A stretch of DNA of 64,000 bases from Botryllus schlosseri (GCA_051294905.1 CM119372.1:37884001-37948000), one strand, 5' to 3'; counted from the stretch's first letter, positions 1-19,400 are shown. Numbers and translations: made by a program. The notes: a model not told the origin generated them from the letters alone.

Positions 1-1299
1 ACAAACAGACCAACAACTATCAGCTGGCGGTAAATCGCGCAATGCGCAAAAACAAATTTCAGTTATGTAATTCGTCAAAAATAAGCATGTGCAATGGTAA
101 AGCACATACCATATTCATATTATAGCGGTTTTCGTGTATAATACGTAATATTTCCTGGCATGGGCTTGGCTCAAGCGTACTTGACCATGACCTAAATCAA
201 AGACAAATGCCGTGGCCCCGCTTCAAGTCACTTCAATTTGGATTCTCATTTTTAAGATCCACAAGGCATGGTCAGTAGTGAGGGTAAGGAACTTTGTTGC
301 AGGCCAATCAGAGAGCGCCACGTCATCCTAATTGCCACGCCCATTTTCATCCCATAAGGGAACATTCATCTGCTACGTCATCTGTGCCACATCATCAAGC
401 GTCACACCTATAGTGCCACATCATCCATCCATTGCTATATCATCGCTGCATTGATTGCCGCATCTTGATACTTTTCTCAGATATTGTATTATGTGTATTT
501 AGAACTAATATCATCCGTCCATATTTTTTAAACTTGATTTTATGTGTACAAGTTACGGTTTCTGCAGTTTCCACATTTTACGACTTATGATTGCTGCGTC
601 AAAACTTACCTTGGCTAGAATCGACAGATTTTCTATTATGTGTATTTAGGACTATGTATTTAAATTCCTATTCAGATTATACATAAATGCGAAAACTATG
701 ATGTCTATGTAAGGTTATATTCTCCGGATAATATTATTAATATCAAAATTCTACACATCATCACTAATTACTTAATATAAAATGCGATTTTGAGCGCTGC
801 GACTTGATAATATGAACCCCTACGCTTCTGATGCATGATTTTTTGTGATAAGGACCTAGGTAACATTCAGAGTCTGCAACGATTGTTTGGATATACATTA
901 TAGCAATACCCACTAAACTATAGGCGGTTATATTACTCTATTGGTCAGAGATAACTCATCCGTCCATATTTTTAAACTTGATTTTATGTATACAAGTTAC
1001 AGTCTCTGCAGCCTCCACATTTTACGACTTATTTTCATTAGACGCAGGCAAGCGATTCTCCAGTTCGGAGCTACGGAAACAAATCACTCGCATGTGCGCG
1101 TTCCGAATAGTCTTGTAGAATTTTCTAAAGTCGTAACAGCTTAGTAGCATATACGCGAATCCCAAGGTGAAAATAATCGAACGAACTATAGCCGTAGGCG
1201 TGCGATTCGCAGGGCTTTATTTGTACAAACTCTATCGATGCCTGTACGCGAACCCCAGCGTTAAAACGATTAGGTCTAATTAACACGACTCTAACATTA

Positions 1300-1475
1300 C
1301 CACATCATCCGCCCATTGCCGCACCTATAGCACACCTATTGCCACATCATCCACCCATTGCCGCACCTATAGCACACCTATTGCCACATCATCCGCCCAT
1401 TGCCGCACCTATAGCACACCTATTGCCACATCATCCGCCCATTGCCGCACCTATAGCACACCTATTGCCACATCA
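1300..1475 (+). repeat. 42-bp minisatellite, 4 full units (mirror copy at 12831-12983)
   Basis: Unit CCACATCATCCGCCCATTGCCGCACCTATAGCACACCTATTG starts at 1300, 1342, 1384, 1426. Confidence 0.95.
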
Positions 1476-3829
1476 CCTGCCACATTCATCTGTGTCACAT
1501 CATCAAGCCCCACACCTATAGTGCCACATCATCCATTGCCACATCATCACCGCATTGATTGCAGCATCTATATGACGCACAGCGCCGCATCAGCCAGCGC
1601 GATGTCGATTGCTGCACCTATGACACTCATTGGCACGTCAAAACTTACCTTAGCTAGATTCGAACCTGGTTTGGATGACTATAATTTCACGTCGCTCACC
1701 ACCAGGCTATTGATAATTCCGATCACTATGTTTTGATAATGACGTGCTTCCGAGAAATAAATAACATTCATTATATGTTAGATGATACTTTTCCTTGATA
1801 TTCTATCATGTGTGTTTAGGACTAATGCAACATCACTATGTTTACGACATGTCTGATTTGAACACACTAATTTTGCGTATCACACCACAAACTGCGCAAG
1901 CCTTCAAAGTTGATAAGTAAACAAGTATTTGCACTCCATCAGAATACTAAAGTAACTTTTCGCGTATATGTACCTGTAGCTAATACTAAAGTGCTTATGA
2001 TTTCAGATTGCTTCAACTTCATGACATTTTCAGTATTAAACAGAAATATAGAACTAGAATACTAACTTTTATTCGTAAATAGCTACTTCTACCTTAATTT
2101 AATGGATTTATCTGAGATCATTGCTTTACTTAATCTCTCCAAAATGTGCATTGTACAAGTACCTCAGCATCGAAACCCTCTGGCTATAACTATCTGGGGG
2201 TATAATTGCAGCAATACTCGAGTACTAATTTAAAAGTAGCTTAGGTATCTAAATGAGCTCTGAGTCGCTGTTATCTCGCATCTGACCATGGAGTTAACAC
2301 CGGTTTTACCTTCGCTCACTGATGAAAAAGATGAAAGTTATTAAAGAAAGCAGATTTGTATGAAAACTCGTTAAATAGAAGTAAAAGTAGCCTTGAAACA
2401 TAACTACTTACTGAAAAATCGTTACGTAGAAGTGGGGTTAGTCTACGAACATAAACACCTACTTACTTTTAAATCTCAACTTGTACTTGTATTCGTACTT
2501 TACCTTTACACGGCGTTTTTGTATAATGTATACTAATTTTAATAAAAATAAACCAAAAGGACAAATATAATTGATCAAATTCATTCATTTATGCAAAAAA
2601 TTGAGAGTCTTGTCGTGATGGTCCGTTTCGAAATGCAAGCGGATGAACTAGACCAAAAGTTTCGAAGATGCGTTTTATAATTGCTCTAGGTGTGAAATAG
2701 ACATCGCACTCTTGCGGGGAAACAACATGAATTCAGTCTTCACACCACAGAAACACAGCCGCTTGGTTAACATCACAAAACCGCAATTGAACTCAAGATT
2801 GCCATACACGGAATCGCTGTTAACGATGTCTGACTGCGGCGTTTCGACGAGTAACGAATTCTCGTATTTAGTATTGATTGTGACACATAGTCAAAACAGC
2901 GACAGTTTTCACAACCCGGTACATACATTGAACCAACTGATGTAAGGTGAAACACTACGTTCGCAGCAAAAAAAAGTTTGCAGGGTATGACCACCACCAA
3001 CATATAGAGTAGTGAGTGAGTAATTAAACTACATACCCCGATTTTACTATATTCCGAGATCCGGATCACGATTCAAGTCTACCTGAGAATCCGAACTACC
3101 CTGTGAAGTTGATATATCAAGTTGTGAACCGTGAAAGGGTTGTAATCTCGGTGAAATAGTGTGCGACACATTTTTCCATAAGTCGAATGCATGTCGGTTC
3201 ATACTAAGACCATTAGGAATTTGCACAATGACAGGTTATTGAAACCGATGCCAAAACTCAGTATAATAGATTGATATTGACCGCGTGTATGTTTGACATA
3301 TATGCAGCATCTTGGATCGGCGGTGGAGCACTGAATGGCACTGCAGAAGTCATCTACTCTCCTAAGCTTGGACTGATCTAGGCTATTGCGCCACTGTGTT
3401 ACGGGTTTAGTGTTCAAGTACTTTATCTTTACACGACGTTTTTTGTAAAATGAATACTAATTTTATTGAAAAAATAAAAAATAAAAAAAGAGCGAAAAAT
3501 TACATTATATCCCGGAACGCAACAAGAAAAATCGTATGAATTTGTAAACTACTTGTTCATGACATAATAATAATTCTACTTGTACACTTTTTCACATTTT
3601 ATAACACTTTAAGTAATACTTAACAGTTTCAGTTTTAAATAAAATACGGAATATAAACTAATCGAAAAATTCGGTAACCAATTTCGCGTAGGCTATGCAT
3701 GCATACAAATGAGGAAAGTTACATCAACGCGTGTTAAAGTAGCTGTATCGAGTTATCGAATGATTTTCTCCTTACATCAAAACAACTAGAATGTATAACT
3801 AAATTAAAAAACGTATCTAAATGAGCTCC

Positions 3830-5780
3830 AGGGCATTGTGATTATGCTGCATACCAAATTTCGTCACACATTTCATGATGGAACAACTTTAAAACTAACG
3901 CAGTTCTATAGCAACTTTTGCCTAAATCTGTTTTCGGTAGCGTGTACATATACATAGTCAGATTTAATAACAGAATTATCATGCTAATATGTGACTCCTC
4001 ACCTTGAAACTTGGTACGTAGTTGTAGGACATTGTGATTATGCAGCATACCAAATTTCCTCACGCATTTCATAATGGAACAACTTTAAAACTAACGCGGT
4101 TCTACATCGACTTTTTGCGTACATCTGTTTTGCGTGGGGGGGCGTATAGCACGTACCTCTACATAGTCAACTTTAACAACGGAATTACCATGCTTAACAT
4201 TGAATCCCAACTCGAAACTTGATACGTAGTTGTAGGACATTATGGTAATGCACCATGCTAAATTTCATCACACATCTAATGATGGAGCACCTTTAAAACT
4301 AACGCAGTCGAATACCGACTTTTACGCATATCTGTTTTGTGCGAACATAGCATATACCTATACATAGTCAATTTTAATAGCAGAATTACCGTGTTAAACA
4401 TTGAATTCCCACCTTGAAAGTTGGTACGCGGTTATAGGAGATTATAACAATGCACCATACCAAATCCCATCACACATTTCATGATCGAACAACTTTAAAA
4501 CTAACGCGGCTCTACATCGACTTTTTGCGTACATCTGTTTTGTGGGAGCGTATAGCACGTAGCCTACCCATACATAGCCAACTTTAATACCGGAATTACC
4601 ATGCTTAACATTGAATCCCAACTCGAAACTTGATACGTAGTTATAGAACATTATGGCAATTCACCATGCTAAATTTCATCACACATCTAATGATGGAACA
4701 CCTTTGAAACTATCGCAGTCGAATACCAACTTTTACGCATATCTGTTTTTCGTGAACATAGCATATACCCATACATAGTCAATTTTAATAACAGAATTAG
4801 CATGCTAAACATTAAATTCTCACCTTGAACGTTGATACGCGGTTGTAGGACATAATAACAATGCACCATACCAAATTTCGTCAGACATTTCATGATGTAA
4901 CACCTTTAAAACCAACGCAGTTCTGTACAGACTTTTGGCTAAATCTGTTTTTCCGTAGCGTAGCACGTACCTATACATAGTCAACTTTAATAACGGATTT
5001 GGCATGTTATTAATCGACTTAGTTTTAAATAAAATACGGAATATAAACTAATCGAAAAATTCGGTAACCAATTTCGCGTAGGCTATGCATGCATACAAAT
5101 GAGGAAAGTTACAACAACGCGTGTTAAAGTAGCTGTATCGAGTTATCGAATGATTTTCTCCTTACATCAAAACAACTAGAATGTATAACTATATTAAAAA
5201 ACGTATCTAAATGAGCTCCAGGGCATTGTGATTATGCTGCATACCAAATTTCGTCAGACATTTCATGATGTAACACCTTTAAAACCAACGCAGTTCTATA
5301 CAGACTTTTGGCTAAATCTGTTTTTCCGTAGCGTAGCACGTACCTATACATAGTCAACTTTAATAACGGATTTAGCATGTTAATAATCGACTCCACACCT
5401 TGAAACTCGGTACGCAGTTGTAAGACATTATGACAATGCATCATGTCAAATTTTGTTACGCATTTCATGATTGAACAACTTTAAAACTAACGCAGTTCCA
5501 TACCGACTTTTGCGAGTGCGTAGCACGTACCTATATGCATACTCAACTTTCATAACGGAATTACCGAGCTAAACATTGAATGCGCAACTTGAAGATTGGT
5601 TCACAGGTGTAGGGCAGTATGACAATGGAACACATCAAATTTCATCACACATTTCATGATGGAACACCTTTAAAACTAACGCAGTTCTATACCAACTTCG
5701 CGTGAATCTGTTTGCGGGAGCGTAGCACGTACCTATGCGTGATCAACTTTAGTGATGGAATTACATATGTAATTAAGTTT
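3830..5780 (+). repeat. Diverged ~200-bp tandem repeat array in the left arm
   Basis: Motifs TTTAAAACTAACGC, CATAGTCAA(C/T)TTTAA, TTGAAACTTGGTACG and ATACCAAATTTC recur at ~200-bp spacing. The array is interrupted by a second copy (~5021-5250) of the block at ~3631-3860. Confidence 0.9.
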
Positions 5781-5837
5781 CAACACTTTTACAATGATTC
5801 GTCTTGCTTCCTATAACACCCCACTCGAGAAAATGCG

Positions 5838-6880
5838 TCGTAGGATATAGATGAAACTAGCACCACTCATCAAGACCGCTGCAAACAGTACATTTCAACA
5901 TTTAGTAGCAGTAAATTTCTAGTAAAGTACAAGACGTGATGATTTCCGAGTGAGTTAAAAAGTAAGTATTGCAGGTATAGTTTACCTGAAAACCGAATAC
6001 TCTGAAATAGAAGTAGATGCAGTGTAAATAGTTAATCACTTAATTAAGTTTAGTGCAAGCAGATAAAACCTATACTTGAGTAGTACAAAATGCACGAGTA
6101 CTTCGCTATCGCCTCCCTCCACGTAATAAGTGTCTACGGTTTAAGACTGCTTTTACCGATACTCGTCGGTTTCAGTTTTAGATAGAATTCGGAAACCAAA
6201 TAATTTCATAAACATAAGCTAATTTAATGAATTTACTCGAATGTACTATGCCGCGCTGATAAGATTAATTATAATATACTTATCATGTTACAGCGATTTT
6301 TCTAGCGTAGAAATGTTTAAAATGTAGTAAGCAGGCCAAATGAAGATATTCGTTGAGCTGAATAAACATAAAAAATACTCTAGACTACTTTATCGGTACT
6401 TTGCAGTTACAGTTTTAGATAAAATTTGTCCCTTTCACTTATAATTACAACTCCTCGCTATCTAAACATGTTTAGAATATATTATTTGCGATGATACGAA
6501 CCCGTGAAGTACTCAAGTTGCTTTTCGTAGGATATAGATGAAACTGACAACACTCACCAAGACCAGTGATCCACTGAAAAAAGTACATTGTAGCAGTAAA
6601 GTCCTACTAAAGTACAAGAAGTAATGATTTCCCAGTTAGTTAAAAAGTAAGTATTGAGGTATAGTTTGCTCGAAAAAGCGAAAAACTCTGAAATAGAACT
6701 AGATGCAGTGTAAATAGGTAATCACTTCATTAAGTATAGCGCAAGCAGGCCGAACCTATACTTAAGTACTGCAAATGTACAAGTACTTCGCTATGTTCTC
6801 CCTCCACGTAAAAAGTGACTAGGTTTTAGAGTACTTTATCGGTACTCGACAGTTTCAGTGTTAGATAAAATTTGGTAAGA
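5838..6880 (+). repeat. Diverged ~350-bp direct duplication (approx. 5838-6190 and 6526-6880) inside the left arm
   Basis: Both blocks start TCGTAGGATATAGATGAAACT and share AAAAGTAAGTATTG, CTCTGAAATAGAA, GTACTTCGCTAT and CCCTCCACGTAA in the same order. Confidence 0.85.
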
Positions 6881-8526
6881 CTTTAAATTTTAAAGTAGTT
6901 TGAGCTTACGTTTGTATCACCTTGACAAGTAACATTATCAGACATGAAAATGATACTATCACCGAATATAGAAGGTAACACGCGTCAATGTGCTTCGGAA
7001 TTCACGAGAAATTGCTTACTAAGAGAAGTATATTGTTGTATACACAATAGTGGAGAGAATATTTAAAATGTAGTAAGCAGGCCGATGGGTATTCGTTTAG
7101 TTGTATAGACATAAAAAACATTCCCGCGCGCTTCTTAGTATTAGGTGGTAGGGTTAGGAAGTGTTTTGTTTAAGAGCGCGCGGGAATGTTTTTTATGTCT
7201 ATACAACTAAACGAATACCCATCGGCCTGCTTACTACATTTTAAATATTCTCTCCACTATTGTGTATACAACAATATACTTCTCTTAGTAAGCAATTTCT
7301 CGTGAATTCCGAAGCACATTGACGCGTGTTAACTTCTATATTCGGTGATAGTATCATTTTCATGTCTGATAATGTTACTTGTCAAGGTGATACAAACGTA
7401 AGCTCAAACTACTTTAAAATTTAAAGTCTTACCAAATTTTATCTGACACTGAAACTGTCGAGTACCGATAAAGTACTCTAAAACCTAGTCACTTTTTACG
7501 TGGAGGGAGAACATAGCGAAGTACTTGTACATTTGCAGTACTTAAGTATAGGTTCGGCCTGCTTGCGCTATACTTAATGAAGTGATTACCTATTTACACC
7601 GCATCTACTTCTATTTCAGAGTTTTTCGCTTTTTCGAGCAAACTATACCTCAATACTTACTTTTTAACTAACTGGGAAATCATTACTTCTTGTACTTTAG
7701 TAGGACTTTACTGCTACAATGTACTTTTTTCAGTGGATCACTGGTCTTGGTGAGTGTTGTCAGTTTCATCTATATCCTACGAAAAGCAACTTGAGTACTT
7801 CACGGGTTCGTATCATCGCAAATAATATATTCTAAACATGTTTAGATAGCGAGGAGTTGTAATTATAAGTGAAAGGGACAAATTTTATCTAAAACTGTAA
7901 CTGCAAAGTACCGATAAAGTAGTCTAGAGTATTTTTTATGTTTATTCAGCTCAACGAATATCTTCATTTGGCCTGCTTACTACATTTTAAACATTTCTAC
8001 GCTAGAAAAATCGCTGTAACATGATAAGTATATTATAATTAATCTTATCAGCGCGGCATAGTACATTCGAGTAAATTCATTAAATTAGCTTATGTTTATG
8101 AAATTATTTGGTTTCCGAATTCTATCTAAACCTGAAACCGAAGAGTATCGGTAAAAGCAGTCTTAAACCGTAGACACTTATTACGTGGAGGGAGGCGATA
8201 GCGAAGTACTCGTGCATTTTGTACTACTCAAGTATAGGTTTTATCTGCTTGCACTAAACTTAATTAAGTGATTAACTATTTACACTGCATCTACTTCTAT
8301 TTCAGAGTATTCGGTTTTCAGGTAAACTATACCTGCAATACTTACTTTTTAACTCACTCGGAAATCATCACGTCTTGTACTTTACTAGAAATTTACTGCT
8401 ACTAAATGTTGAAATGTACTGTTTGCAGCGGTCTTGATGAGTGGTGCTAGTTTCATCTATATCCTACGACGCATTTTCTCGAGTGGGGTGTTATAGGAAG
8501 CAAGACGAATCATTGTAAAAGTGTTG

Positions 8527-10477
8527 AAACTTAATTACATATGTAATTCCATCACTAAAGTTGATCACGCATAGGTACGTGCTACGCTCCCGCAAACAGA
8601 TTCACGCGAAGTTGGTATAGAACTGCGTTAGTTTTAAAGGTGTTCCATCATGAAATGTGTGATGAAATTTGATGTGTTCCATTGTCATACTGCCCTACAC
8701 CTGTGAACCAATCTTCAAGTTGCGCATTCAATGTTTAGCTCGGTAATTCCGTTATGAAAGTTGAGTATGCATATAGGTACGTGCTACGCACTCGCAAAAG
8801 TCGGTATGGAACTGCGTTAGTTTTAAAGTTGTTCAATCATGAAATGCGTAACAAAATTTGACATGGTGCATTGTCATAATGTCTTACAACTGCGTACCGA
8901 GTTTCAAGGTGGGGAGTCGATTATTAACATGCTAAATCCGTTATTAAAGTTGACTATGTATAGGTACGTGCTACGCTACGGAAAAACAGATTTAGCCAAA
9001 AGTCTGTATAGAACTGCGTTGGTTTTAAAGGTGTTACATCATGAAATGTCTGACGAAATTTGGTATGCAGCATAATCACAATGCCCTGGAGCTCATTTAG
9101 ATACGTTTTTTAATATAGTTATACATTCTAGTTGTTTTGATGTAAGGAGAAAATCATTCGATAACTCGATACAGCTACTTTAACACGCGTTGTTGTAACT
9201 TTCCTCATTTGTATGCATGCATAGCCTACGCGAAATTGGTTACCGAATTTTTCGATTAGTTTATATTCCGTATTTTATTTAAAACTAAGTCGATTAATAA
9301 CATGCCAAATCCGTTATTAAAGTTGACTATGTATAGGTACGTGCTACGCTACGGAAAAACAGATTTAGCCAAAAGTCTGTACAAAACTGCGTTGGTTTTA
9401 AAGGTGTTACATCATGAAATGTCTGACGAAATTTGGTATGGTGCATTGTTATTATGTCCTACAACCGCGTATCAACGTTCAAGGTGAGAATTTAATGTTT
9501 AGCATGCTAATTCTGTTATTAAAATTGACTATGTATGGGTATATGCTATGTTCACGAAAAACAGATATGCGTGAAAGTTGGTATTCGACTGCGATAGTTT
9601 CAAAGGTGTTCCATCATTAGATGTGTGATGAAATTTAGCATGGTGAATTGCCATAATGTTCTATAACTACGTATCAAGTTTCGAGTTGGGATTCAATGTT
9701 AAGCATGGTAATTCCGGTATTAAAGTTGGCTATGTATGGGTAGGCTACGTGCTATACGCTCCCACAAAACAGATGTACGCAACAAGTCGATGTAGAGCCG
9801 CGTTAGTTTTAAAGTTGTTCGATCATGAAATGTGTGATGGGATTTGGTATGGTGCATTGTTATAATCTCCTATAACCGCGTACCAACTTTCAAGGTGGGA
9901 ATTCAATGTTTAACACGGTAATTCTGCTATTAAAATTGACTATGTATAGGTATATGCTATGTTCGCGCAAAACAGATATGCGTAAAAGTCGGTATTCGAC
10001 TGCGTTAGTTTTAAAGGTGCTCCATCATTAGATGTGTGATGAAATTTAGCATGGTGCATTACCATAATGTCCTACAACTACGTATCAAGTTTCGAGTTGG
10101 GATTCAATGTTAAGCATGGTAATTCCGTTGTTAAAGTTGACTATGTAGAGGTACGTGCTATACGCCCCCCCACGCAAAACAGATGTACGCAAAAAGTCGA
10201 TGTAGAACCGCGTTAGTTTTAAAGTTGTTCCATTATGAAATGCGTGAGGAAATTTGGTATGCTGCATAATCACAATGTCCTACAACTACGTACCAAGTTT
10301 CAAGGTGAGGAGTCACATATTAGCATGATAATTCTGTTATTAAATCTGACTATGTATATGTACACGCTACCGAAAACAGATTTAGGCAAAAGTTGCTATA
10401 GAACTGCGTTAGTTTTAAAGTTGTTCCATCATGAAATGTGTGATGAAATTTGGTATGCAGCATAATCACAATGCCCT
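8527..10477 (-). repeat. Mirror copy of the ~200-bp tandem repeat array in the right arm
   Basis: Reverse complement of 3830-5780. Confidence 0.9.
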
Positions 10478-13306
10478 GGAGCTCATTTAGATACGTTTTT
10501 TAATTTAGTTATACATTCTAGTTGTTTTGATGTAAGGAGAAAATCATTCGATAACTCGATACAGCTACTTTAACACGCGTTGATGTAACTTTCCTCATTT
10601 GTATGCATGCATAGCCTACGCGAAATTGGTTACCGAATTTTTCGATTAGTTTATATTCCGTATTTTATTTAAAACTGAAACTGTTAAGTATTACTTAAAG
10701 TGTTATAAAATGTGAAAAAGTGTACAAGTAGAATTATTATTATGTCATGAACAAGTAGTTTACAAATTCATACGATTTTTCTTGTTGCGTTCCGGGATAT
10801 AATGTAATTTTTCGCTCTTTTTTTATTTTATTTTTTTCAATAAAATTAGTATTCATTTTACAAAAAACGTCGTGTAAAGATAAAGTACTTGAACACTAAA
10901 CCCGTAACACAGTGGCGCAATAGCCTAGATCAGTCCAAGCTTAGGAGAGTAGATGACTTCTGCAGTGCCATTCAGTGCTCCACCGCTGATCCAAGATGCT
11001 GCATATATGTCAAACATACACGCGGTCAATATCAATCTATTATACTGAGTTTTGGCATCGGTTTCAATAACCTGTCATTGTGCAAATTCCTAATGGTCTT
11101 AGTATGAACCGACATGCATTCGACTTATGGAAAAATGTGTCGCACACTATTTCACCGAGATTACAACCCTTTCACGGTTCACAACTTGATATATCAACTT
11201 CACAGGGTAGTTCGGATTCTCAGGTAGACTTGAATCGTGATCCGGATCTCGGAATATAGTAAAATCGGGGTATGTAGTTTAATTACTCACTCACTACTCT
11301 ATATGTTGGTGGTGGTCATACCCTGCAAACTTTTTTTTGCTGCGAACGTAGTGTTTCACCTTACATCAGTTGGTTCAATGTATGTACCGGGTTGTGAAAA
11401 CTGTCGCTGTTTTGACTATGTGTCACAATCAATACTAAATACGAGAATTCGTTACTCGTCGAAACGCCGCAGTCAGACATCGTTAACAGCGATTCCGTGT
11501 ATGGCAATCTTGAGTTCAATTGCGGTTTTGTGATGTTAACCAAGCGGCTGTGTTTCTGTGGTGTGAAGACTGAATTCATGTTGTTTCCCCGCAAGAGTGC
11601 GATGTCTATTTCACACCTAGAGCAATTATAAAACGCATCTTCGAAACTTTTGGTCTAGTTCATCCGCTTGCATTTCGAAACGGACCATCACGACAAGACT
11701 CTCAATTTTTTGCATAAATGAATGAATTTGATCAATTATATTTGTCCTTTTGGTTTATTTTTAATAAAATTAGTATACATTATACAAAAACGCCGTGTAA
11801 AGGTAAAGTACGAATACAAGTACAAGTTGAGATTTAAAAGTAAGTAGGTGTTTATGTTCGTAGACTAACCCCACTTCTACGTAACGATTTTTCAGTAAGT
11901 AGTTATGTTTCAAGGCTACTTTTACTTCTATTTAACGAGTTTTCATACAAATCTGCTTTCTTTAATAACTTTCATCTTTTTCATCAGTGAGCGAAGGTAA
12001 CACCGGTGTTAACTCCATGGTCAGATGCGAGATAACAGCGACTCAGAGCTCATTTAGATACCTAAGCTACTTTTAAATTAGTACTCGAGTATTGCTGCAA
12101 TTATACCCCCAGATAGTTATAGCCAGAGGGTTTCGATGCTGAGGTACTTGTACAATGCACATTTTGGAGAGATTAAGTAAAGCAATGATCTCAGATAAAT
12201 CCATTAAATTAAGGTAGAAGTAGCTATTTACGAATAAAAGTTAGTATTCTAGTTCTATATTTCTGTTTAATACTGAAAATGTCATGAAGTTGAAGCAATC
12301 TCAAATCATAAGCCCTTTAGTATTAGCTACAGGTACATATACGCGAAAAGCTACTTTAGTATTCTGATGGAGTGCAAATACTTGTTTACTTATCAACTTT
12401 GAAGGCTTGCGCAGTTTGTGGTGTGATACGCAAAATTAGTGTGTTCAAATCAGACATGTCGTAAACATAGTGATGTTGCATTAGTCCTAAACACACATGA
12501 TAGAATATCAAGGAAAAGTATCATCTAACGTATAATGAATGTTATTTATTTCTCGGAAGCACGTCATTATCAAAACATAGTGATCGGAATTATCAATAGC
12601 CTGGTGGTGAGCGACGTGAAATTATAGTCATCCAAACCAGGTTCGATTCTAGCTAAGGTAAGTTTTGACGTGCCAATGAGTGTCATAGGTGCAGCAATCG
12701 ACATCGCGCTGGTTGATGCGGCGCTGTGCGTCATATAGATGCTGCAATCAATGCGGTGATGATGTGGCAATGGATGATGTGGCACTATAGGTGTGGGGCT
12801 TGATGATGTGACACAGATGAATGTGGCAGGTGATGTGGCAATGGGCGGATGATGTGGCAATAGGTGTGCTATAGGTGCGGCAATGGGCGGATGATGTGGC
12901 AATAGGTGTGCTATAGGTGCGGCAATGGGTGGATGATGTGGCAATAGGTGTGCTATAGGTGCGGCAATGGGCGGATGATGTGGTAATGTTAGAGTCGTGT
13001 TAATTAGACCTAATCGTTTTAACGCTGGGGTTCGCGTACAGGCATCGATAGAGTTTGTACAAATAAAGCCCTGCGAATCGCACGCCTACGGCTATAGTTC
13101 GTTCGATTATTTTCACCTTGGGATTCGCGTATATGCTACTAAGCTGTTACGACTTTAGAAAATTCTACAAGACTATTCGGAACGCGCACATGCGAGTGAT
13201 TTGTTTCCGTAGCTCCGAACTGGAGAATCGCTTGCCTGCGTCTAATGAAAATAAGTCGTAAAATGTGGAGGCTGCAGAGACAGTAACTTGTATACATAAA
13301 ATCAAG

Positions 13307-13690
13307 TGTCACGGTGGATTTTTGTCCGTATCAATGGTTCGTTACGCTCGAGTCACCTCGCCGCACGCGAGAAGAATCTGGATCACAAATCATTCTCTTC
13401 AAAAGCGGTCGTGCCGTAAACAGGGTTTTCACGCCGCTTTGAATCTGACTCTAATTAATGTAATTTCTCATTTAGAGTATTTGCCAGCGTATTTTTTAAC
13501 GGTATGATATAGTCTGGGTTGTTTGATCGACATTCTGCAATATACACAACGGGAAACTTATTGTGTCCGGACTTATTAGCCAGTTAATTATACTCATAAG
13601 TCAGTCATTACTCGCAGCGATTGCTCCAGTCCAACTCGCCGTCGAGTTGTAACAGTTCTGTGAAGGACTGAATGTGTCATAACAAGGACA
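13307..13690 (+). repeat. 5' LTR (384 bp)
   Basis: TGTCACGGTGG...AACAAGGACA; direct repeat of 16218-16669. Confidence 0.95.
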
Positions 13691-13725
13691 TAAGTTAAAA
13701 AATACGAGAGCTGACTGACATCGAT

Positions 13726-15711
13726 ATGGATCGAACACTGCAAGCTGCCGGTCGACAGGCGTTAAGCAAGCAGCAGCATATCGACGACGTCCTCCGAATT
13801 TCCAACATCAATGACTATTGCATTAAACCTCGAACTTTGAAGAAATCACCGAGTCTTCATTCCGTCACATCGTCAAGAAAAGCAGCCAAAGACCGCAAGG
13901 CTGCCCTGGAACTTAAGAAAATCGAACTTGAAGAAGAAGCTGCAGCTGCTGTTTTGAAACTCAGAGAAGATACTGCAAAAACAGCATTACATTTCAAGCT
14001 CAGAAAACTAGAAGCTATTGAAAAATTGAACGCTGCCATAGAAGAAGAAGCCTTGTGCCAACGTTTTGACAAATCACAAAAGCCGAACACTCGAATTGAC
14101 ATAAACACTACTGTGAGTACGGAACCTTCAACTTTGCCCGCTACTCAAGCAATGACTTTATCTACCTTGCACACGCCTGCATCTGTGCCAGTCAGCAGTA
14201 CTGGGCAGAGGCTCGTTTCTGAGCCGGCGATAACCCAACCGACCACTCGTCAGTTAACCGCATCAGCAATCCCATGTCATTCCCAGTCTATCCATTCTCA
14301 TAGTCTCACTGCCGGTTCCAGGCCGGTCATTCCCTTGTATTCTCAAAGCACTCAGCAGTGCCAGAGTGGCCTTAGATCTAATGATATACTTCCTCGTTCT
14401 CGCGGTCAATCCGCCGATATTCGTAGTGTGCCAACCGGGTACAACGATGTCATTCCTCGTCCTCGCGGTCAATCCGCCGATATTCGTAGTGTGCCAACCG
14501 GGTACAACGATGTCATTCCTCGTTCTCGCGGTCAATCCGCCGATATTCGTAATGTGCCAACCGGGCACAACGATCTCGCTTCTCGCTCTCGCGATAAACT
14601 CGCAAATCATCGTCGTAAAGACAATTTCAATGCTGATCTCGTGCCCTTAGCGCACAACAAATACAGTTCTCATGCTCGCGATAAAGTCGCACCTACTTTT
14701 AGTTTTATCTACGAACCTGATTGCGTCCTTGAGCCCGAAAATGTAAATCCTAACGATAAGCACTCCGCTCGAACCGAATCCACATCTTATCCTCGCAAGC
14801 TTTTCGAAAGCCTCCCGCCTGCGTCTGACACACCACACAGTGGTGTCGGTCAGAGGCCCGTTAATGGGCCGGCGCCCGCACCGACAAGTTATCCAAACCC
14901 TAAACCTAGTCCATGCGACTCCCCTAATCATGATACTCCTGTAACCATCAAACTCTTCGGGGATGTAACCATGAAATTCTTCGGGGCTGTTCCCAGAGCC
15001 CAATTCCGAACAGTCATTCCAAGTAGTACCAATGTCGCTACTGTGCCTGTCATATCTGCAAACGACGAAGTCCCTCCGCAGGGACAAAACGACCTGATAC
15101 CTGTTGCTGTAAGTGACAGTTCGACTTACTGTGACCCTGGTTATGGCAAACTCGAGATTTCTGGAAACTCTGATGCCGACACGCAAGCTGAACTCGACGA
15201 TTCTGAAGACTGTGACGCCAACACGCAACCTCTGTCCAACGTAGAAGACGCTGCGCCTCCGCGCACAACAAACATACGTCACAAAGTGTTTCCGCTCAAG
15301 AAAACGGAGACTGTCAAACTGCCCTACAACATAGAAGCTGCCAAGATGTCCCTCAAAAACCAACGCACTACATTTGCGGAAGAACCCGAGTTCTTTCGAA
15401 AGTACAAAGAGAAAATCAGCGAGTACCTACCTCGGCGGTACGTTCAGCTCGGTCCGTCTGACTTGCTCTCTTCATCCAAACGACCTTCCAAACCTATCTA
15501 TTTCCATACCCAACAACGAAAGATGCCGAGCAGCCGCAAACTCCAGCTTGCTGCAGCCGTATACGGCAACAAACTTGCTACAGACGTTGTAGAAGATTTC
15601 AACTACGATATCGACTCCGCTCGCTACTCTACCGACAGCACCGCAATGCTCCGCAGCATTCGAACGACCTCCGCTCGATTCAACGCCTTCGTCCGTCAAC
15701 GACCGCCTTGA
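13726..15711 (+). CDS. 661-aa BEL/Pao-derived polyprotein remnant (coiled-coil N-terminus, low-complexity middle, pre-RT segment fused to a Pao Peptidase_A17/RNase H-like segment)
   Basis: LPYNIEAAKMSLKNQRTTFAEEPEFFRKYKEKISEYL resembles the BEL segment preceding RT. RKLQLAAAVYGNKLA...YSTDSTAMLRSIRTTSARFNAFVRQR resembles the BEL PRLELxAAV...WTDSxxVLxYI...RFxxFVANR motif. No YxDD motif seen. Confidence 0.8.
   Translation: MDRTLQAAGRQALSKQQHIDDVLRISNINDYCIKPRTLKKSPSLHSVTSSRKAAKDRKAALELKKIELEEEAAAAVLKLREDTAKTALHFKLRKLEAIEKLNAAIEEEALCQRFDKSQKPNTRIDINTTVSTEPSTLPATQAMTLSTLHTPASVPVSSTGQRLVSEPAITQPTTRQLTASAIPCHSQSIHSHSLTAGSRPVIPLYSQSTQQCQSGLRSNDILPRSRGQSADIRSVPTGYNDVIPRPRGQSADIRSVPTGYNDVIPRSRGQSADIRNVPTGHNDLASRSRDKLANHRRKDNFNADLVPLAHNKYSSHARDKVAPTFSFIYEPDCVLEPENVNPNDKHSARTESTSYPRKLFESLPPASDTPHSGVGQRPVNGPAPAPTSYPNPKPSPCDSPNHDTPVTIKLFGDVTMKFFGAVPRAQFRTVIPSSTNVATVPVISANDEVPPQGQNDLIPVAVSDSSTYCDPGYGKLEISGNSDADTQAELDDSEDCDANTQPLSNVEDAAPPRTTNIRHKVFPLKKTETVKLPYNIEAAKMSLKNQRTTFAEEPEFFRKYKEKISEYLPRRYVQLGPSDLLSSSKRPSKPIYFHTQQRKMPSSRKLQLAAAVYGNKLATDVVEDFNYDIDSARYSTDSTAMLRSIRTTSARFNAFVRQRPP
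14383..14592 (+). repeat. In-frame 63-bp tandem repeat (about 3 units; PRSRGQSADIRSVPTGYNDVI)
   Basis: TCCTCGT(T/C)CTCGCGG at 14391, 14454, 14517. Confidence 0.95.
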
Positions 15712-16217
15712 ACCAGGATCGCTCCGCGCGCGCGTTACCTGACATGTTTCATTTTTATTTTGTCATATGTTTCTTTTCTGTCCCGACTTGGATCGTTCTC
15801 AGTTTCCTTGAGAAGCATAAAAACCCATAATTTTACCGCACTATGTCACTCGCTTTGATAATATGTCACTATCCTGCTACTGCAAGTTCTGTCTCTAATT
15901 TTAAGAAAAAATTCTGGATCATGAGACCAGACTTCCACTCGTAAACTTACTGTTTTGTAAACCAACCGGCACTCATCGTTGCATCAGAAATAGTGGTGCC
16001 TTGAATTGAATAACCTTTGCCTACTCATATTGCACGTTTTCTGTACATTGCCATCGCTTACTGACGCTGTATCAGCTTTCTATACATTGCATTTGCCTTG
16101 CATATTTCTTCATGCCCCGATTGTCTTCATAATCCAAAAAACCACCATTCCTTCATTTTTTCTGTGGCTCACCGATAACTGCCTTTTTGCAATTACGCTT
16201 CGCCACGGGGCCGGCTA

Positions 16218-16669
16218 TGTCACGGTGGATTTTTGTCCGTATCAATGGTTCGTTACGCTCGAGTCACCTCGCCGCACGCGAGAAGAATCTGGATCACAAA
16301 TCATTCTCTTCAAAAGCGGTCGTGCCGTAAACAGGGTTTTCACGCCGCTTTGAATCTGACTCTAATTAATGTAATTTCTCATTTAGAGTATTTGCCAGCG
16401 TATTTTTTAACGGTATGATATAGTCTGGGTTATTATTATTATTATTATTAAAGGTTTTCAGTGGCACTTATCACCTGTTAAGGTGCCATAGTCTGGGTTG
16501 TTTGATCGACATTCTGCAATATACACAACGGGAAACTTATTGTGTCCGGACTTATTAGCCAGTTAATTATACTCATAAGTCAGTCATTACTCGCAGCGAT
16601 TGCTCCAGTCCAACTCGCCGTCGAGTTGTAACAGTTCTGTGAAGGACTGAATGTGTCATAACAAGGACA
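16218..16669 (+). repeat. 3' LTR (452 bp = 384 + 68-bp insertion including its TSD)
   Basis: Identical by eye to the 5' LTR except for the insertion at 16432-16499. Confidence 0.95.
16432..16487 (-). mobile_element. 56-bp 5'-truncated non-LTR retrotransposon (LINE/SINE) 3' end
   Basis: Minus strand reads GGCACCTTAACAGGTGATAAGTGCC (stem-loop) ACTGAAAACCTT then (TAA)n; 12-bp TSD ATAGTCTGGGTT at 16420-16431 and 16488-16499; absent from the 5' LTR. Confidence 0.85.
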
Positions 16670-18076
16670 TCAAGTTTAAAAATATGGACGGATGAGTTAT
16701 CTCTGACCAATAGAGTAATATAACCGCCTATAGTTTAGTGGGTATTGCTATAATGTATATCCAAACAATCGTTGCAGACTCTGAATGTTACCTAGGTCCT
16801 TATCACAAAAAATCATGCATCAGAAGCGTAGGGGTTCATATTATCAAGTCGCAGCGCTCAAAATCGCATTTTATATTAAGTAATTAGTGATGATGTGTAG
16901 AATTTTGATATTAATAATATTATCCGGAGAATATAACCTTACATAGACATCATAGTTTTCGCATTTATGTATAATCTGAATAGGAATTTAAATACATAGT
17001 CCTAAATACACATAATAGAAAATCTGTCGATTCTAGCCAAGGTAAGTTTTGACGCAGCAATCATAAGTCGTAAAATGTGGAAACTGCTGAAACCGTAACT
17101 TGTACACATAAAATCAAGTTTAAAAAATATGGACGGATGATATTAGTCCTAAATACACATAATACAATATCTGAGAAAAGTATCAAGATGCGGCAATCAA
17201 TGCAGCGATGATATAGCAATGGATGGATGATGTGGCACTATAGGTGTGACGCTTGATGATGTGGCACAGATGACGTAGCAGATGAATGTTCCCTTATGGG
17301 ATGAAAATGGGCGTGGCAATTAGGATGACGTGGCGCTCTCTGATTGGCCTGCAACAAAGTTCCTTACCCTCACTACTATGGTCCACATGGCATATGGCAT
17401 GACCTTATGAGGTAATATTTTATTTCGCCATAGCGCTGTGTCTTCCTATGCGCGTTACACAGATGCTTGACAGAAAGACCAAAAAAGCATCAGCGAATAC
17501 CTACATGCATTGATCGGTTGCTCTTCAATCAGAGAGATATTCTGTTCTGCGCAAGGTCCGGCTGTCGGTCACAGTCTAGCGTTGGTGTATAGATGATACG
17601 ACGAAACTATGACATTTAAAATCGTAGTATAATTCAGTTTATTGCCATTGTTTAAACTTGAAAGTTTCATATATCAAACTCATTCCGAGTTCAAGAGACT
17701 TCAATTCGGGCGGCGTCGCGCCCCCTTCATATAGCCTACTTTCACACCCCAAGGGTGGCGCGCGCCCCAGTTTGAAAACCACTGATCCACGCATCGAGTT
17801 AGCGATACAATAATAACACGATTGCAGCAATCACGATTCAAGTTCCCGGTATTCTAACCCATAGTAGCCTATGAGTAGTTGAGCAGTTAAGAAATATGTT
17901 CCCAGTATTTCGTGCCGTACGCACTAAAAATACTCTTATTTGACATCATGAACTATTAGGCACACCAGGCAACACCTTTCACACATTCTCGTGGATTGAG
18001 CATTCCTTCTATGCATCTGCAATACTACATTAATTCTCCATAAGACAAAAAAGTCATTTGTCCAGTACCGGTAGGG

Positions 18077-19400
18077 CAGGGGTGGGCAATTATTTTCCTC
18101 CGCGGGCCAAATGAGAAGTACAAAATACGTTGGCGGGCCAAGTGAAAAATTTTAGCTATATTCTCCAGCGTATTTTAATTTTATTTCTAAATTACATTGT
18201 TGATAAATGCTGCTGAGTGAATGTGTTGACTGTTGATGTTAGGTAATGAGAAAGTGGCGATTAATTAAAAATATCTATTTGCCGTCATGATTCGAAACAA
18301 TGTTAAACATGATACATTTTTAACTCTCTTTCGAACCCTATCCACGTTATTCTATTACGACACTAAAACTGTGGTTCTCAAACTTGTTTTTAGAAACGCC
18401 CCTCTTTATGATAGTGAAAAATTTCGCGCCCACCCCCCAATCATGATATCACAACATATCAAAAAGAGCAACCTGCATGCTAGCAATCACGACGGATGGT
18501 TTGACGGCATGGAAGGTTATGGTTGTTGATGAGAGAATTCTGTAATATCAATGTCGTACAATAAACAGAGCAATAAACTATAAGATAGGGTTAAATCGCG
18601 AGAGCGTGAATTTATTTTCATTTATCTTCAGCTTCGCGCCTCCCTTCAGATGCATTCACGCCCCTCAGTTCGGTAACCACCGCACTGAAATGTATATGGG
18701 ATAGTACAAAGCTTGTCTTGGTTGCTGCATTCCGAACAGTGTGCAATTCAAATAGCCTTGATGTTGAGCGAAGTTTGCAGTTTTTCTTAAATTCGCCTTC
18801 CCTTGACCGAGTGTTTCGTGCTCAGCAAAAACTAAAAGGACTGGTTCCCCCCTAACTCCAGTAGCCTATATAAGTATTTAGTGCTCTAAACCTTCTTTGA
18901 ATTTCAACTTTCGGCTTTCTCTATTTGACATGTCCGTTCATCCTTTATGCGTGATAGATATGATGAGTCATATGGTAATCGTGAGCACTGATTGACTTGT
19001 TTTTCGAATTAGGGATTTGGAAACGCTTCACATAACAATTTGAAACACAGGCCGTATCATGCGTAATGTGACAATGGCAACAAAGAAGGTTTGACCTAAA
19101 CTATATGGAAATTGTGATTTCTTGTGCATATAATTGTTACTCATACTTTGCCACATTGCCTTTATTTGAATCTGGATTACGCATGCGAGGTACGTAGGCA
19201 GCGTAATCGTGGCACATGAATAAACAGGCTTCAAAGTATAGGAATTACCTGTTTAGTTGATACAGCCTATGGTTTTAGTCCATGCATCAACATTCAAAAA
19301 GCAGCTTTAATGTTATGAATTTCAAGCAACCTTTCGCGGGCCGCACAGAATGGCCTCGCGGGTCGCATTTGGCCCGCGGGCCGCACTTTGCCCAGGCCTG
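18077..19400 (+). mobile_element. Non-autonomous hAT-like DNA transposon (with nested ~315-bp MITE at ~18369-18682)
   Basis: Ends CAGGGGTGGGCAA / TTGCCCAGGCCTG; GGCCCGCG subterminal motifs; homologous reversed copy at 40603-43049. TSD not evident. Confidence 0.7.

Follow-up and report, generated by a model that had tools for sequence, protein, structure and literature searches.

Gene-less 15-kb palindromes with Maverick/Polinton ends in Botryllus schlosseri: a candidate helper-dependent satellite family

The 495-Mb genome of the eukaryote Botryllus schlosseri contains more than 100 gene-less DNA palindromes of 15 kb. They share their ends with the resident Maverick/Polinton elements and therefore probably hitch-hike on them. 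One copy lies in the 64,000-nucleotide stretch analyzed here (GCA_051294905.1 CM119372.1:37884001-37948000, hereafter the window). The most likely explanation is that this copy belongs to a multi-copy, non-coding, whole-length palindromic Maverick/Polinton derivative, that is, a snap-back, helper-dependent satellite lineage which is rebuilt from one arm in each round and integrated in trans.

Architecture and coding content of the window element

The element spans positions 274-17377 (17,104 bp) and is flanked on both sides by an exact 6-bp target site duplication (TSD), which has a chance expectation of 1/4096. The left junction reads ...ggcATGGTC|AGTAGTGAGGG and the right junction ...CCCTCACTACT|ATGGTCcac. 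The features are as follows.

268..273, no strand: left TSD copy ATGGTC, 6 bp
274..279, + strand: tip AGTAGT, the (AGT)2 end motif; mirrored as ACTACT at 17372-17377
280..303, + strand: sub-tip hypervariable segment ("tip barcode"), element positions 7-30; mirror at 17348-17371
304..350, + strand: conserved terminal box of 47 nt (CCAATCAGAG...GCCACGTCATCC...TAATTGCCACGCC...); mirror at 17301-17347
274..7132, + strand: left arm, 6,859 nt, non-coding
1296..1475, + strand: 42-bp tandem repeats, 4.3 copies, with the CCACATCATC iteron; mirror at 12837-12987, 3.6 copies
3850..5698, + strand: internal tandem repeats (202/411-bp units at 3850-4997, 189-bp units at 5331-5698); mirror at 8609-10457
7133..7174, + strand: asymmetric centre (loop), 42 nt, closed by a CCCGCGCGC/GCGCGCGGG clamp
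7175..13307, - strand: inner part of the right arm
13308..16668, + strand: nested insert of an unrelated repeat family, 3,361 bp, outside the element proper
16669..17377, - strand: outer right arm, 709 nt
17378..17383, no strand: right TSD copy ATGGTC, 6 bp

The first-pass annotation had described a fully palindromic element of 13.7 kb with AGTAGT...ACTACT termini, an exact ATGGTC duplication and arms of about 6.85 kb that pair almost to the centre. The termini and the duplication were found at both junctions, and the arms indeed pair up to an unpaired loop of 42 nt (blocks 274-982/16669-17377, 976-1449/12834-13307, 1461-3488/10818-12845 and 3470-7132/7175-10837). The length had to be corrected, because the insert nested in the right arm extends the span beyond 13.7 kb. 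The arms are near-perfect, not perfect, inverted copies: across 6,835 aligned nt they differ by 26 substitutions, one indel of 23 nt and one of 1 nt, or 0.38%. The insert has a GC content of 0.49 versus 0.35-0.42 in its surroundings, is flanked by a 7-bp duplication (ATCAAGT at 13301-13307 and 16669-16675), carries a 670-aa low-complexity frame (13699-15711) and belongs to a repeat family with 234 first-look candidates in the genome. The CCACATCATC iteron occurs 16 times in the window, compared with 0.10 occurrences expected, and never further than 1.3 kb from the outer end of either arm.

The longest stop-to-stop frame within an arm of the window element is 150 aa. A Pfam scan of 18 frames (14 from the arm and four from the nested insert, including the 670-aa frame) returned nothing above the cut-off, the best E-value being 0.045, and a search for tRNAs and Rfam families detected none in the element. 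The scanned frames contained no rve integrase, and none of the capsid-morphogenesis module (major and minor capsid proteins, protease, packaging ATPase) was found. The window element thus displays the 6-bp TSD and the tip repeat of an autonomous Maverick and lacks the integrase and the capsid module. Within the frames and families scanned it has no recognisable gene, as had been claimed. Among ten further copies, the only frames of at least 150 aa are one of 155 aa and a mirrored one of 185 aa, and the centre of a 25.6-kb copy has no frame longer than 129 aa.

Copies of the palindrome and their variation

A genome-wide search with the tip 47-mer, allowing up to three mismatches, gave 113 forward and 113 reverse matches (control, 0 and 0). 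The terminal 700 bp of the window element yielded 902 first-look candidates, and all 40 of those scored were full or near-full length at 96-100% identity. Ten further copies were fetched and every one is a whole-length palindrome with an arm identity of 99.1-100%, which brings the count of palindromic copies to 11 of 11 with that of the window. The TSD is exact over 6 bp in eight of these 11, and matches at five, four and three of six positions in one copy each; the AGTAGT tip was found in 19 of 20 copies. The expectation that other loci would combine the same termini with different 6-bp duplications was thus borne out. Many copies occupy separate sites, each with a TSD of its own, as a non-autonomous derivative should. 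In a run from a different sample (X5), contigs likewise contain the family at high depth.

The predicted recurrence of the same centre was likewise observed. A 55-mer from the centre matches the genome 104 times (50 forward, 54 reverse; control, 0 and 0), and the 42-nt loop with its flanks is conserved in nine of the 12 copies read. What propagates is a lineage that keeps one conserved centre, rather than the one-off product of a template switch; the shared loop and its flanks support a single origin. The 35 window-type tip pairs have a median length of 15,586 bp, with 19 pairs between 14.25 and 15.77 kb. In spite of this clustering, to which shared ancestry may contribute in part, the arm content of window-type copies is mosaic.

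Diversity is concentrated immediately behind the tip. In an alignment of 20 copies, pi was 0.406 in the bin covering positions 7-34 versus 0.01-0.03 at positions 35-800. The barcode is nevertheless the same at both ends in ten of 11 paired copies, with one mismatch in the eleventh, and in all 11 pairs the ends of one copy group as sister taxa. Barcode distance between copies shows no correlation with body distance. Copies differ from one another by 4.6% on average and are also separated by mirrored structural mosaics.

In the window copy, 22 of 25 informative arm-arm substitutions are private to one arm (10 left, 12 right), as are 134 of 158 across the other ten. As the differences are mostly private mutations, the arms must have been identical at insertion, and the divergence accumulated since ranges from 0.014 to 0.75%. 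In two copies the private changes are unevenly divided between the arms (37 versus 11 and 21 versus 6). Asymmetries that arose in place have been retained, namely the nested insert and the 23-nt indel in the window copy and arm deletions in four others (C3, C12, C5 and C7). Both states of an arm difference are present elsewhere in the family at 24 of 158 sites in the ten copies and at two of 25 in the window copy, and exchange in place may contribute to these. Some of the two-state differences fall inside tandem repeats.

Ends shared with coding Mavericks/Polintons

Dozens of coding Mavericks/Polintons with chromo-integrase, A32-like ATPase and pPolB genes are present in the same genome and are the candidate helpers. 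Pox_A32 alone matches 83 times, in repeated frames of 205-274 aa. One such locus (L052) encodes an integrase with rve and chromo domains (4.3e-13 and 2.7e-8), an A32-like ATPase (8.3e-9) and a pPolB of 1065+228 aa with Exo I-III and Pol A-C motifs, whose nearest Atlas clusters are eukaryotic PF03175 (score 0.97, 19/30). A genome-wide profile search for PF03175 and Peptidase_C5 gave no matches. Of the morphogenesis proteins of the coding elements, only the A32-like ATPase was recognised; neither Pfam nor PHROGs (0 for nine frames) identified a capsid protein or a protease. The inverted ends of these coding copies are under about 650 bp.

The coding Polinton tip, ...CACTACT|TACGCA, is collinear with the window tip without a gap. 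The two agree at 49 of 68 nt, including 8/8 at positions 1-8 and 33/40 at positions 29-68, and both start AGTAGTGA. The 42-bp repeats of the window element align with the sub-terminal 160 nt of the Polinton at 75-79% identity (E about 1e-26). A blastn comparison of the arms with 13.6 kb of the Maverick, which leaves out its left ~5 kb, found nothing beyond the tip of about 290 nt and these repeats. The proposed Polinton derivation holds for the tip and the iterons; beyond about 300 nt, and outside the 42-bp repeats, the arms show no recognisable Polinton sequence. The termini are homologous to those of a coding element of the same genome, as would be expected of a non-autonomous Maverick derivative.

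The Polinton tip 40-mer occurs 129 times forward and 128 times reverse. Among the 38 Polinton-tip pairs listed, nine enclose an ATPase match; these measure 16.8-18.4 kb, apart from one of 35 kb. The centre of the palindrome family lies inside 11 of the listed pairs, in seven cases no more than 32 nt from the midpoint. At least 11 elements, known from their coordinates, thus combine the palindrome centre with the coding tip motif at 0-1 mismatch, and this sister set agrees with the first-pass annotation. Two of them lie at C3:15376478-15391893 and C4:25515553-25530995. Every check proposed in that annotation that could be run gave the predicted result. Coding Polintons with a collinear tip exist, but none with exactly the tips of the window sub-family was found. 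The window-type tip differs from the sequenced Maverick tip at 19 of 68 positions and none of the 35 window-type tip pairs encloses an ATPase match; the coding Mavericks are therefore only candidates for the present helper of this sub-family.

A 50-mer located 644-693 nt inside the right tip of the Polinton is found once per element in all eight ATPase-bearing pairs examined. In five elements it is present, inverted, at both ends, so that at least 690 nt of the right end occur twice. One of the five still codes, and its inverted terminal duplication is at least 3.3 kb long. End-copying therefore recurs in the Maverick family. The suggestion that one end was copied twice is supported by these elements, although, as noted above, the palindromes do not represent a one-off product of a template switch.

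Origin and propagation of the palindromes

These findings are in agreement with the satellite hypothesis. From the variation among copies, we infer that in the ancestor one Maverick end, the right one, was copied back on itself by template switch or snap-back, and that every replication round since has at some point used one arm as the template for both. The intermediate could be a hairpin "half genome", or a displaced strand might fold back on itself and be corrected. Because a single arm would template both, each new insertion would start with identical arms and identical barcodes, after which the arms would drift apart in the chromosome. By analogy with the biology of Mavericks, the palindrome would keep only the cis-acting ends, that is, the (AGT)2 tip, the 47-nt box and the CCACATCATC iterons. 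The tip would serve jump-back protein-primed initiation, the helper pPolB would copy the palindrome and the helper chromo-integrase would insert it. Such mobilisation in trans is suggested by the shared ends together with the lack of genes; the replication mode, packaging and any interference with the helper are likewise putative. With less certainty, packaging of the DNA in helper capsids may be what holds the modal length close to 15.5 kb; the helper measures roughly 17.6 kb, and the ratio of about 88% is no more than a hint of such packaging.

The known systems that come closest each match in part. Vertebrate Mavericks have an (AGT)2 or (AG)3 short tandem repeat at their tips, and intact ones vary by only about 10% around 17 kb, which the authors read as a constrained genome size (PMC8097293). 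The window element resembles them in its (AGT)2/(ACT)2 ends, 6-bp TSD and inverted ends, but it is "TIR" throughout (2 x 6.85 kb), compared with the 46-1,447 bp given for intact vertebrate copies in the same paper. The collinear 68-nt tip and the sub-terminal iterons link it to the coding copy; the lack of pPolB, integrase, ATPase and capsid gene sets it apart. For inverted duplications of one genome end, incomplete adenovirus particles are reportedly a DNA precedent. Snap-back or copy-back defective viral genomes are also highly symmetric, non-coding palindromes whose ends compete for the replication machinery (review PMC13506859). The window element has the corresponding 2 x 6.85-kb palindrome around a 42-nt centre, with helper sequence recognisable only over ~300 nt and the 42-bp repeats. 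Unlike those genomes, the palindromes are chromosomally integrated, heritable DNA with TSDs. They have persisted and diversified over a long time as one lineage around a single conserved centre, and their arms are not recognisably helper sequence. In the racket-like Polinton model of Kapitonov and Jurka (PMC4196379), as in the adenovirus panhandle, and in the rolling hairpin of parvoviruses such as AAV (PMC11575299), a displaced or excised single strand pairs with itself, which regenerates a duplex origin and renders both ends alike. Since the whole palindrome strand pairs with itself, its "racket" would have a 33-42-nt head and a 6.85-kb handle, unlike the intermediates of the racket model. 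Mavericks are not known to encode a nicking Rep-type protein.

It is unlikely that the palindromes are fold-back non-autonomous transposons that use an integrase only, move as double-stranded DNA by cut- or copy-paste with no extrachromosomal protein-primed replication and have their arms kept alike by gene conversion in the chromosome. Long internal tandem repeats are found in the arms of fold-back elements too, no free form was seen in the data used, and the two-state sites described above would fit conversion. However, the asymmetric insertions and deletions remain uncorrected and the arm differences are mostly singletons divided between the arms, which makes conversion in place a weak explanation. 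The fast-changing barcode is common to both ends of a copy, and lengths hold near 15.5 kb with no MITE-like shrinkage. FB and Galileo have longer TSDs, of 7-9 bp; with its 6-bp TSD and Maverick-shared ends, the window family does not belong to the P/Mutator fold-back elements. The tips also retain the (AGT)2 that Maverick work links to jump-back initiation (PMC8097293). Drosophila FB, Galileo, Tetris and Tm1 do share very long, internally repetitive inverted repeats that account for most of their length, and many non-coding copies, but they are assigned to the P or Mutator superfamilies (PMC3573991, PMC4079207, PMC3169594); the palindromes have Maverick-type tips, TSD length and tip homology and, at ~15 kb, are near helper size.

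The five double-right-end elements, one of them still coding, would be expected if each palindrome were a fresh, dead-end snap-back product of an ordinary Maverick that was then integrated. Independent events should, however, turn round at differing points, whereas the same asymmetric centre occurs 104 times, at the midpoint under either tip type, and the arms past the tip region are not Maverick sequence. The shared centre already contradicts such a literal single-event reading for this family, and we regard it as very improbable. Equally improbable are host-kept hairpin loci whose transcripts fold into long dsRNA and feed small-RNA silencing of Mavericks. A bulk RNA run does contain reads from both strands of the terminal 709 nt, but these are few (179 among 12.9 million records) and 173 of the 179 lie only partly on it. 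Moreover, Maverick homology is confined to ~300 nt of tip and the iterons, and TSD-flanked, young-armed copies at more than 100 sites point to ongoing transposition rather than a conserved host locus. Long-read libraries are known to generate long perfect palindromes in error, and fold-back chimeric reads could have produced false ones here. The chance that this accounts for the family is negligible given the exact TSDs at eight of 11 copies, the 113 tip pairs, the conserved asymmetric loop, the private arm substitutions, the 3.36-kb insert in one arm only and the high depth in the other sample.

A bolder version of the satellite hypothesis can be put forward only tentatively. An active Maverick virus could have the palindromes as its encapsidated satellites; these would replicate as half-length hairpins, one 7-kb arm being the whole heritable information, and unfold to the ~15.5-kb unit-length palindrome for packaging and integration. 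Their 24-nt barcode would be replaced in nearly every generation as co-replicating molecules switch ends. If true, this would be the first known case of a DNA snap-back defective genome that became self-sustaining, parasitises a virus-like transposon and is recorded in the germline, and the satellites would now exceed their helper in number by about three to one. The palindromes probably preserve a record of how the Maverick/Polinton copies itself.

The palindromic element and its family

At the left end of the element, ...ggcATGGTC is followed by AGTAGTGAGGG, which starts at window position 274. At the right end, ...CCCTCACTACT runs to position 17377 and is followed by ATGGTCcac. Thus, the tips are AGTAGT and ACTACT, and the 6-bp duplication (TSD) ATGGTC is exact. 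A repeat search of the window resolved the arms as listed.

Parts of the palindromic element (window coordinates; arm pairs from the repeat search)
274-982 with 16669-17377, inverted, arm pair
976-1449 with 12834-13307, inverted, arm pair
1461-3488 with 10818-12845, inverted, arm pair
3470-7132 with 7175-10837, inverted, arm pair
7133-7174, unpaired centre of 42 nt, the remainder after arm pairing
13308-16668, nested insert of 3,361 bp that splits the right arm; GC 0.49, higher than its surroundings

An end-to-end alignment of the arms over 6,835 nt contains 26 substitutions and two indels, one of 23 nt located in the 42-bp repeat array and one of 1 nt (0.38%). The end reading and the arm pairing bear out the first-pass annotation, which had described a near-full palindrome with (AGT)2-type tips and an exact TSD. 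Its size of 13.7 kb also holds, as the element measures 13,743 bp once the nested 3,361-bp insert is subtracted. The insert is flanked by a 7-bp duplication, ATCAAGT, and belongs to a separate dispersed repeat family with 234 first-look candidates in the genome. Other copies of that family are 82-94% identical, several of them with the same two boundaries, and the insert carries a 63-bp tandem repeat within a 670-aa low-complexity frame that has no Pfam match.

The arms contain tandem repeats with unit lengths of 42, 189 and 202/411 bp and, as had been claimed, no recognisable gene. Their longest stop-to-stop frame is 150 aa, none of 18 frames (14 from the arms and 4 from the nested insert, including the 670-aa one) exceeded the Pfam cut-off, and ARAGORN and Rfam detected no tRNA and no RNA family over window 1-18000 and L053, a locus at the right end of a coding Maverick.

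We searched the genome assembly (495 Mb, 219 contigs) for further copies. The terminal 700 bp returned 902 first-look candidates; all 40 that were scored are 96-100% identical, and they form inverted pairs 10-18 kb apart. A 47-nt box just inside the tip has 113 forward and 113 reverse matches with at most 3 mismatches, and the reversed pattern, used as a control, has 0/0. Ten further copies were taken in full length, and each is a palindrome whose left half matches its reverse-complemented right half at 99.1-100% identity over 3-8.3 kb. With the window copy included, 8 of 11 copies have a 6-bp TSD without mismatch, and in the other three it agrees at 5/6, 4/6 and 3/6 positions, respectively; among 20 distinct copies with a known tip sequence, 19 have AGTAGT. 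The expectation that more loci would share these termini, with 6-bp TSDs of their own, is therefore supported. We rejected an assembly artefact as the source of the palindromes.

The ten copies are without frames of at least 150 aa, except for one of 155 aa and a mirrored one of 185 aa, and frames in the middle 10 kb of a copy of 25.6 kb do not exceed 129 aa. The copies are mosaics of each other, one having only about a quarter of its arm in common with the window copy. The mosaic is mirrored exactly across both arms in 6 of the 10, and the other four carry one-sided deletions or insertions. Neither viral_contigs nor metagenome_contigs contained an exact match to the two tip motifs. One palindrome with tips of the window type (C11:10550547-10579766 of the same assembly) spans 29 kb because it hosts a nested element with tips of the coding Maverick type and a centre of its own (C11:10560251-10575632).

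A coding Maverick with related ends

Genome-wide searches for PF03175 and Peptidase_C5 (PF00770) gave no matches, and as their controls were equally blank, these negatives carry no weight. Pox_A32 gave 83 matches, located in repeated open frames of 205-274 aa. The 10 kb around one of them (L052, which with the 3.6-kb L053 covers C4:11852800-11866400) contain densely packed frames on one strand. These include a 339-aa integrase (Pfam rve 4.3e-13, chromo 2.7e-8), a 205-aa A32-like ATPase (Pfam 8.3e-9) and, at L052 5247-9131 (-), a pPolB that consists of a 1065-aa frame, one stop and then 228 aa in frame. Inspection by eye identified in the two frames the motifs Exo I-III and Pol A-C of protein-primed polymerases, and the single in-frame stop lies between Pol B and Pol C. 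In the ESM Atlas the 1065-aa frame adjoins eukaryotic PF03175 clusters (score 0.97, 19/30 hits); PHROGs had no match for nine Maverick frames, and a PDB sequence search with the pPolB frame returned zinc-finger noise only. A 701-nt segment located upstream of the polymerase matches 27 places in the genome with at least 95% identity, which indicates a few dozen coding copies.

Several other features were seen in this locus. Weak Pfam matches mark a C2H2 zinc-finger-like stretch at about residues 292-327 of the pPolB (zf-C2H2, 0.01) and, between the Pol A and Pol B motifs, an insert that resembles a nuclease (RAP, 0.0085). A gene with a BIR (inhibitor-of-apoptosis) domain (Pfam BIR 1.1e-18) lies about 1 kb inside the right tip, at L053 1061-1642 (+). 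A stretch near the tip that resembles a tRNA T-arm was dismissed, having no ARAGORN or Rfam support. A 250-nt dispersed repeat, unrelated to palindrome or Maverick, occurs at 77% identity in the Maverick flank (L053 3318-3568) and, far from the element, at window 52156-52389.

The right end of the coding Maverick reads ...GATATCACTACT, followed by TACGCA. When both tips are read inward from the end and compared gap-free, Maverick and window agree at 8 of 8 positions over 1-8 (AGTAGTGA), at 8 of 20 over 9-28 and at 33 of 40 over 29-68, where GGCCAATC, GCCACGTC and TAATTGCCACGCC occupy identical places. The adjoining 160 nt of the Maverick are 75-79% identical to the 42-bp repeats of the window (E about 1e-26), and an end-to-end alignment of the terminal 290 nt gives 61%; blastn of L052 against the window and the other loci found no similarity. 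The 10-mer CCACATCATC occurs 16 times in the window, always in the outer 1.3 kb of the two arms (0.10 expected), and, with at most one mismatch, 4 times in the last 210 nt of the Maverick (0.29 expected). Because the termini are those of a Maverick, we rejected an assignment to a different superfamily with 6-bp TSDs.

The Maverick tip 40-mer has 129 forward and 128 reverse matches genome-wide (control 0/0). We paired the 100 places listed and compared the pairs with the listed ATPase and centre hits. Among these, 38 pairs carry Maverick-type tips: 9 contain an ATPase hit and are 16.8-18.4 kb long apart from one of 35 kb, 11 contain the palindrome centre, within 32 nt of the midpoint in 7 cases and with a length of 15.1-15.5 kb in several, and 18 contain neither. 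The 35 window-type pairs among the matches listed include 20 with the centre motif. Since the centre lies inside pairs of both types, one palindromic body occurs with two tip types, judged from positions alone, and one of the two is that of the coding Maverick. A coding Polinton of the kind that the first-pass annotation had called for is present, with integrase, ATPase and pPolB genes and a partly matching tip. The tip match is poorest over positions 9-28, and 0 of the 35 listed window-type pairs contain an ATPase hit. The family as a whole consists of non-coding, TSD-flanked, multi-copy palindromes, and its ends are homologous to the ends of a coding Maverick of this genome.

Many of the Maverick-type pairs that lack both ATPase and centre are 15-16.6 kb apart (e.g. 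C1:12404510-12420095 and C3:28187765-28203150), and such pairs may be further non-coding derivative families. Three pairs of this kind, C11:8089261, C6:1657546 and, by the 50-mer described below, C1:28789843, have the Maverick right end at both ends. In C3:4207967-4228843 and C5:24797166-24819689, which have Maverick-type tips, two centre motifs each are found, about 2.9 and 3.4 kb to either side of the midpoint and both on the same strand, as is not expected from a simple palindrome.

Origin of the palindrome and renewal of its symmetry

A 50-mer located 644-693 nt inside the Maverick right tip has 49 genome matches. Among the matches listed, it is present at one end only in 8 of 8 ATPase-bearing pairs, which puts the TIRs of ordinary copies below about 650 nt. 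In five elements it is present at both ends, inverted. One of these contains the palindrome centre motif and another is the coding L052/L053 copy (further sites C4:11847924 and C4:11849872-11850572), in which a stretch 2.6-3.3 kb inside the right tip has an inverted 98% match. Going by coordinates only, this element appears to span about 18.1 kb (11847281-11865392) and to have at least 3.3 kb of its terminus duplicated in inverted orientation; it could represent a stage between an ordinary Maverick and a palindrome. The five elements indicate that end-copying recurs in the Maverick family and that a graded series leads from ordinary copies to all-arm palindromes.

The first-pass annotation had proposed that one end was copied twice by a template switch. 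The doubled, inverted right ends support this part of the proposal. A single fresh snap-back event for each palindrome must be rejected, because independent events would have different turn points and the centre is common to the copies. The asymmetric centre with its GC clamp is kept in 9 of the 12 copies read, the most divergent copy among them, and is absent or replaced in the other 3; its 55-mer has 50 forward and 54 reverse matches genome-wide (control 0/0), as the check for a common centre had foreseen. Hence, the palindrome arose once or rarely and then spread in palindromic form.

A tree of the terminal 700 nt from 31 ends groups left and right end of the same copy as sisters in 11 of 11 pairs, whether the variable tip is included or not; different copies, in contrast, are 4.6% apart on average. 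For each arm-to-arm substitution we checked the state in the other copies. In the window copy, one arm alone carries a private state at 22 of 25 informative sites (10 left, 12 right); at two sites both states recur in other copies, and at one site neither does. Ten other copies, with an arm divergence of 0.014%-0.75%, gave 134 private sites out of 158 informative ones and 24 with both states elsewhere; 25 further sites were without data. The arms were identical at the time of insertion. Conversion in place would also yield matching arms, and it is weak as an explanation, since chromosomal changes such as the nested insert, the 23-nt indel and the one-sided deletions persist. Symmetry arises afresh with every new copy, much like the LTRs that each retroviral cycle regenerates. 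The private substitutions are even in the window copy and lopsided in two others, C6 (L045/L046; 37 vs 11) and C10b (L049/L050; 21 vs 6).

The segment just below the tip (window 280-303 and 17348-17371, and the same place in L003-L050) exceeds the following 770 nt in diversity between copies by a factor of about 15-40: over 20 copies, pi is 0.406 in the bin 7-34 and 0.01-0.03 over 35-800. Copies with a body difference of 0.3% have 10-13 of 28 tip positions different, and tip distance does not correlate with body distance (rho 0.08). The variants resemble recombined mosaics of a few blocks, one of which, ATCGACCTTATA, is common to the coding Maverick. Left and right end of a copy nonetheless have the same variant in 10 of 11 cases; the eleventh pair has 1 mismatch. 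Tip renewal therefore precedes the synthesis of both ends from one template; that it proceeds by end-switching between co-replicating molecules is our guess. Among Maverick-type tips, 69 of the 72 listed one-mismatch rows differ at the same inner edge.

Four public runs were compared with window 16669-18600. No contig had at least 31 nt on both sides of the right junction, the best one (285 nt, 17350-17634, in X1 and X3) reaching 28 nt into the element. Nor did these runs, whose junction contigs covered at most 28 nt of the element, contain an empty-site joint. Of 179 RNA reads on this stretch, 173 lie only partly on it. In the RNA run X23, seven reads leave the window copy at 17347, the start of the variable tip, and continue as a tip variant ending ...CCCTACTACT, so that library includes some RNA (or carried-over DNA) from tips that belong to other copies.

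A replication model and its implications

The common centre, the doubled right ends, the arm identity and the tip variation together point to an ancestor that would have been a snap-back copy of a Maverick right end, and to a single-arm stage that every later round would include. Protein priming with jump-back at the (AGT)2 tip would let the helper pPolB start, and the helper chromo-integrase would insert the duplex and create the 6-bp TSD (steps adapted from the biology of Mavericks in PMC8097293 and PMC4196379). The single-arm stage could be reached by a strand switch of the polymerase at the centre, giving a hairpin of one arm's length that would be unfolded to a palindrome in the next round. 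Alternatively, the displaced self-complementary strand could fold back on itself (33-42-nt loop, 6.85-kb stem) and have its mismatches corrected. Both routes predict the same outcome, identical arms and tips, and we prefer neither.

Ordinary non-autonomous transposons become shorter, whereas 19 of the 35 window-type pairs among the matches listed fall within 14.25-15.77 kb (median 15,586) despite varying arm content. This contrast suggests, as a weaker inference, a lower size limit imposed by packaging in the helper capsid; the helper encodes a packaging-type ATPase. Part of the clustering is due to shared ancestry of some copies.

Extrachromosomal protein-primed replication and packaging of Mavericks/Polintons have been deduced mainly from gene content. 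For snap-back defective genomes, an adenovirus precedent was reportedly described by Daniell and Mullenbach in 1978. PMC13506859 portrays snap-back defective genomes, mainly from RNA viruses, as highly symmetric palindromes without coding capacity, whose high complementarity lets them compete better for the replication machinery. Vertebrate Mavericks, according to PMC8097293, have (AGT)2//(ACT)2 or (AG)3//(CT)3 end motifs and perfect 6-bp TSDs; intact ones measure 16,862 ± 1,678 bp with TIRs of 46-1,447 bp, their end repeats serve the "jumping-back" step of protein-primed replication, and particles are said there to be not yet observed. Fold-back transposons look similar but belong to other superfamilies. 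Our literature search found no palindromic or non-coding Maverick/Polinton derivative, although an unnoticed database entry is possible; "non-autonomous polinton" was used once in the literature searched, for Tlr1 (PMC5499653).

A gene-less, ends-only, symmetrically rebuilt lineage of near-helper length is the by-product expected from strand-displacement replication combined with size-limited packaging. The genome supplies more than 100 dated examples together with intermediate forms, and these ideas are testable by ordinary sequencing. The fast-changing sub-tip segment, equal at both ends, is a new observation on Maverick ends that calls for an explanation. More than 100 near-perfect palindromes of 14-16 kb are also a likely cause of chromosome fragility and of assembly error, and the palindromes may compete with their helper for replication and integration proteins.
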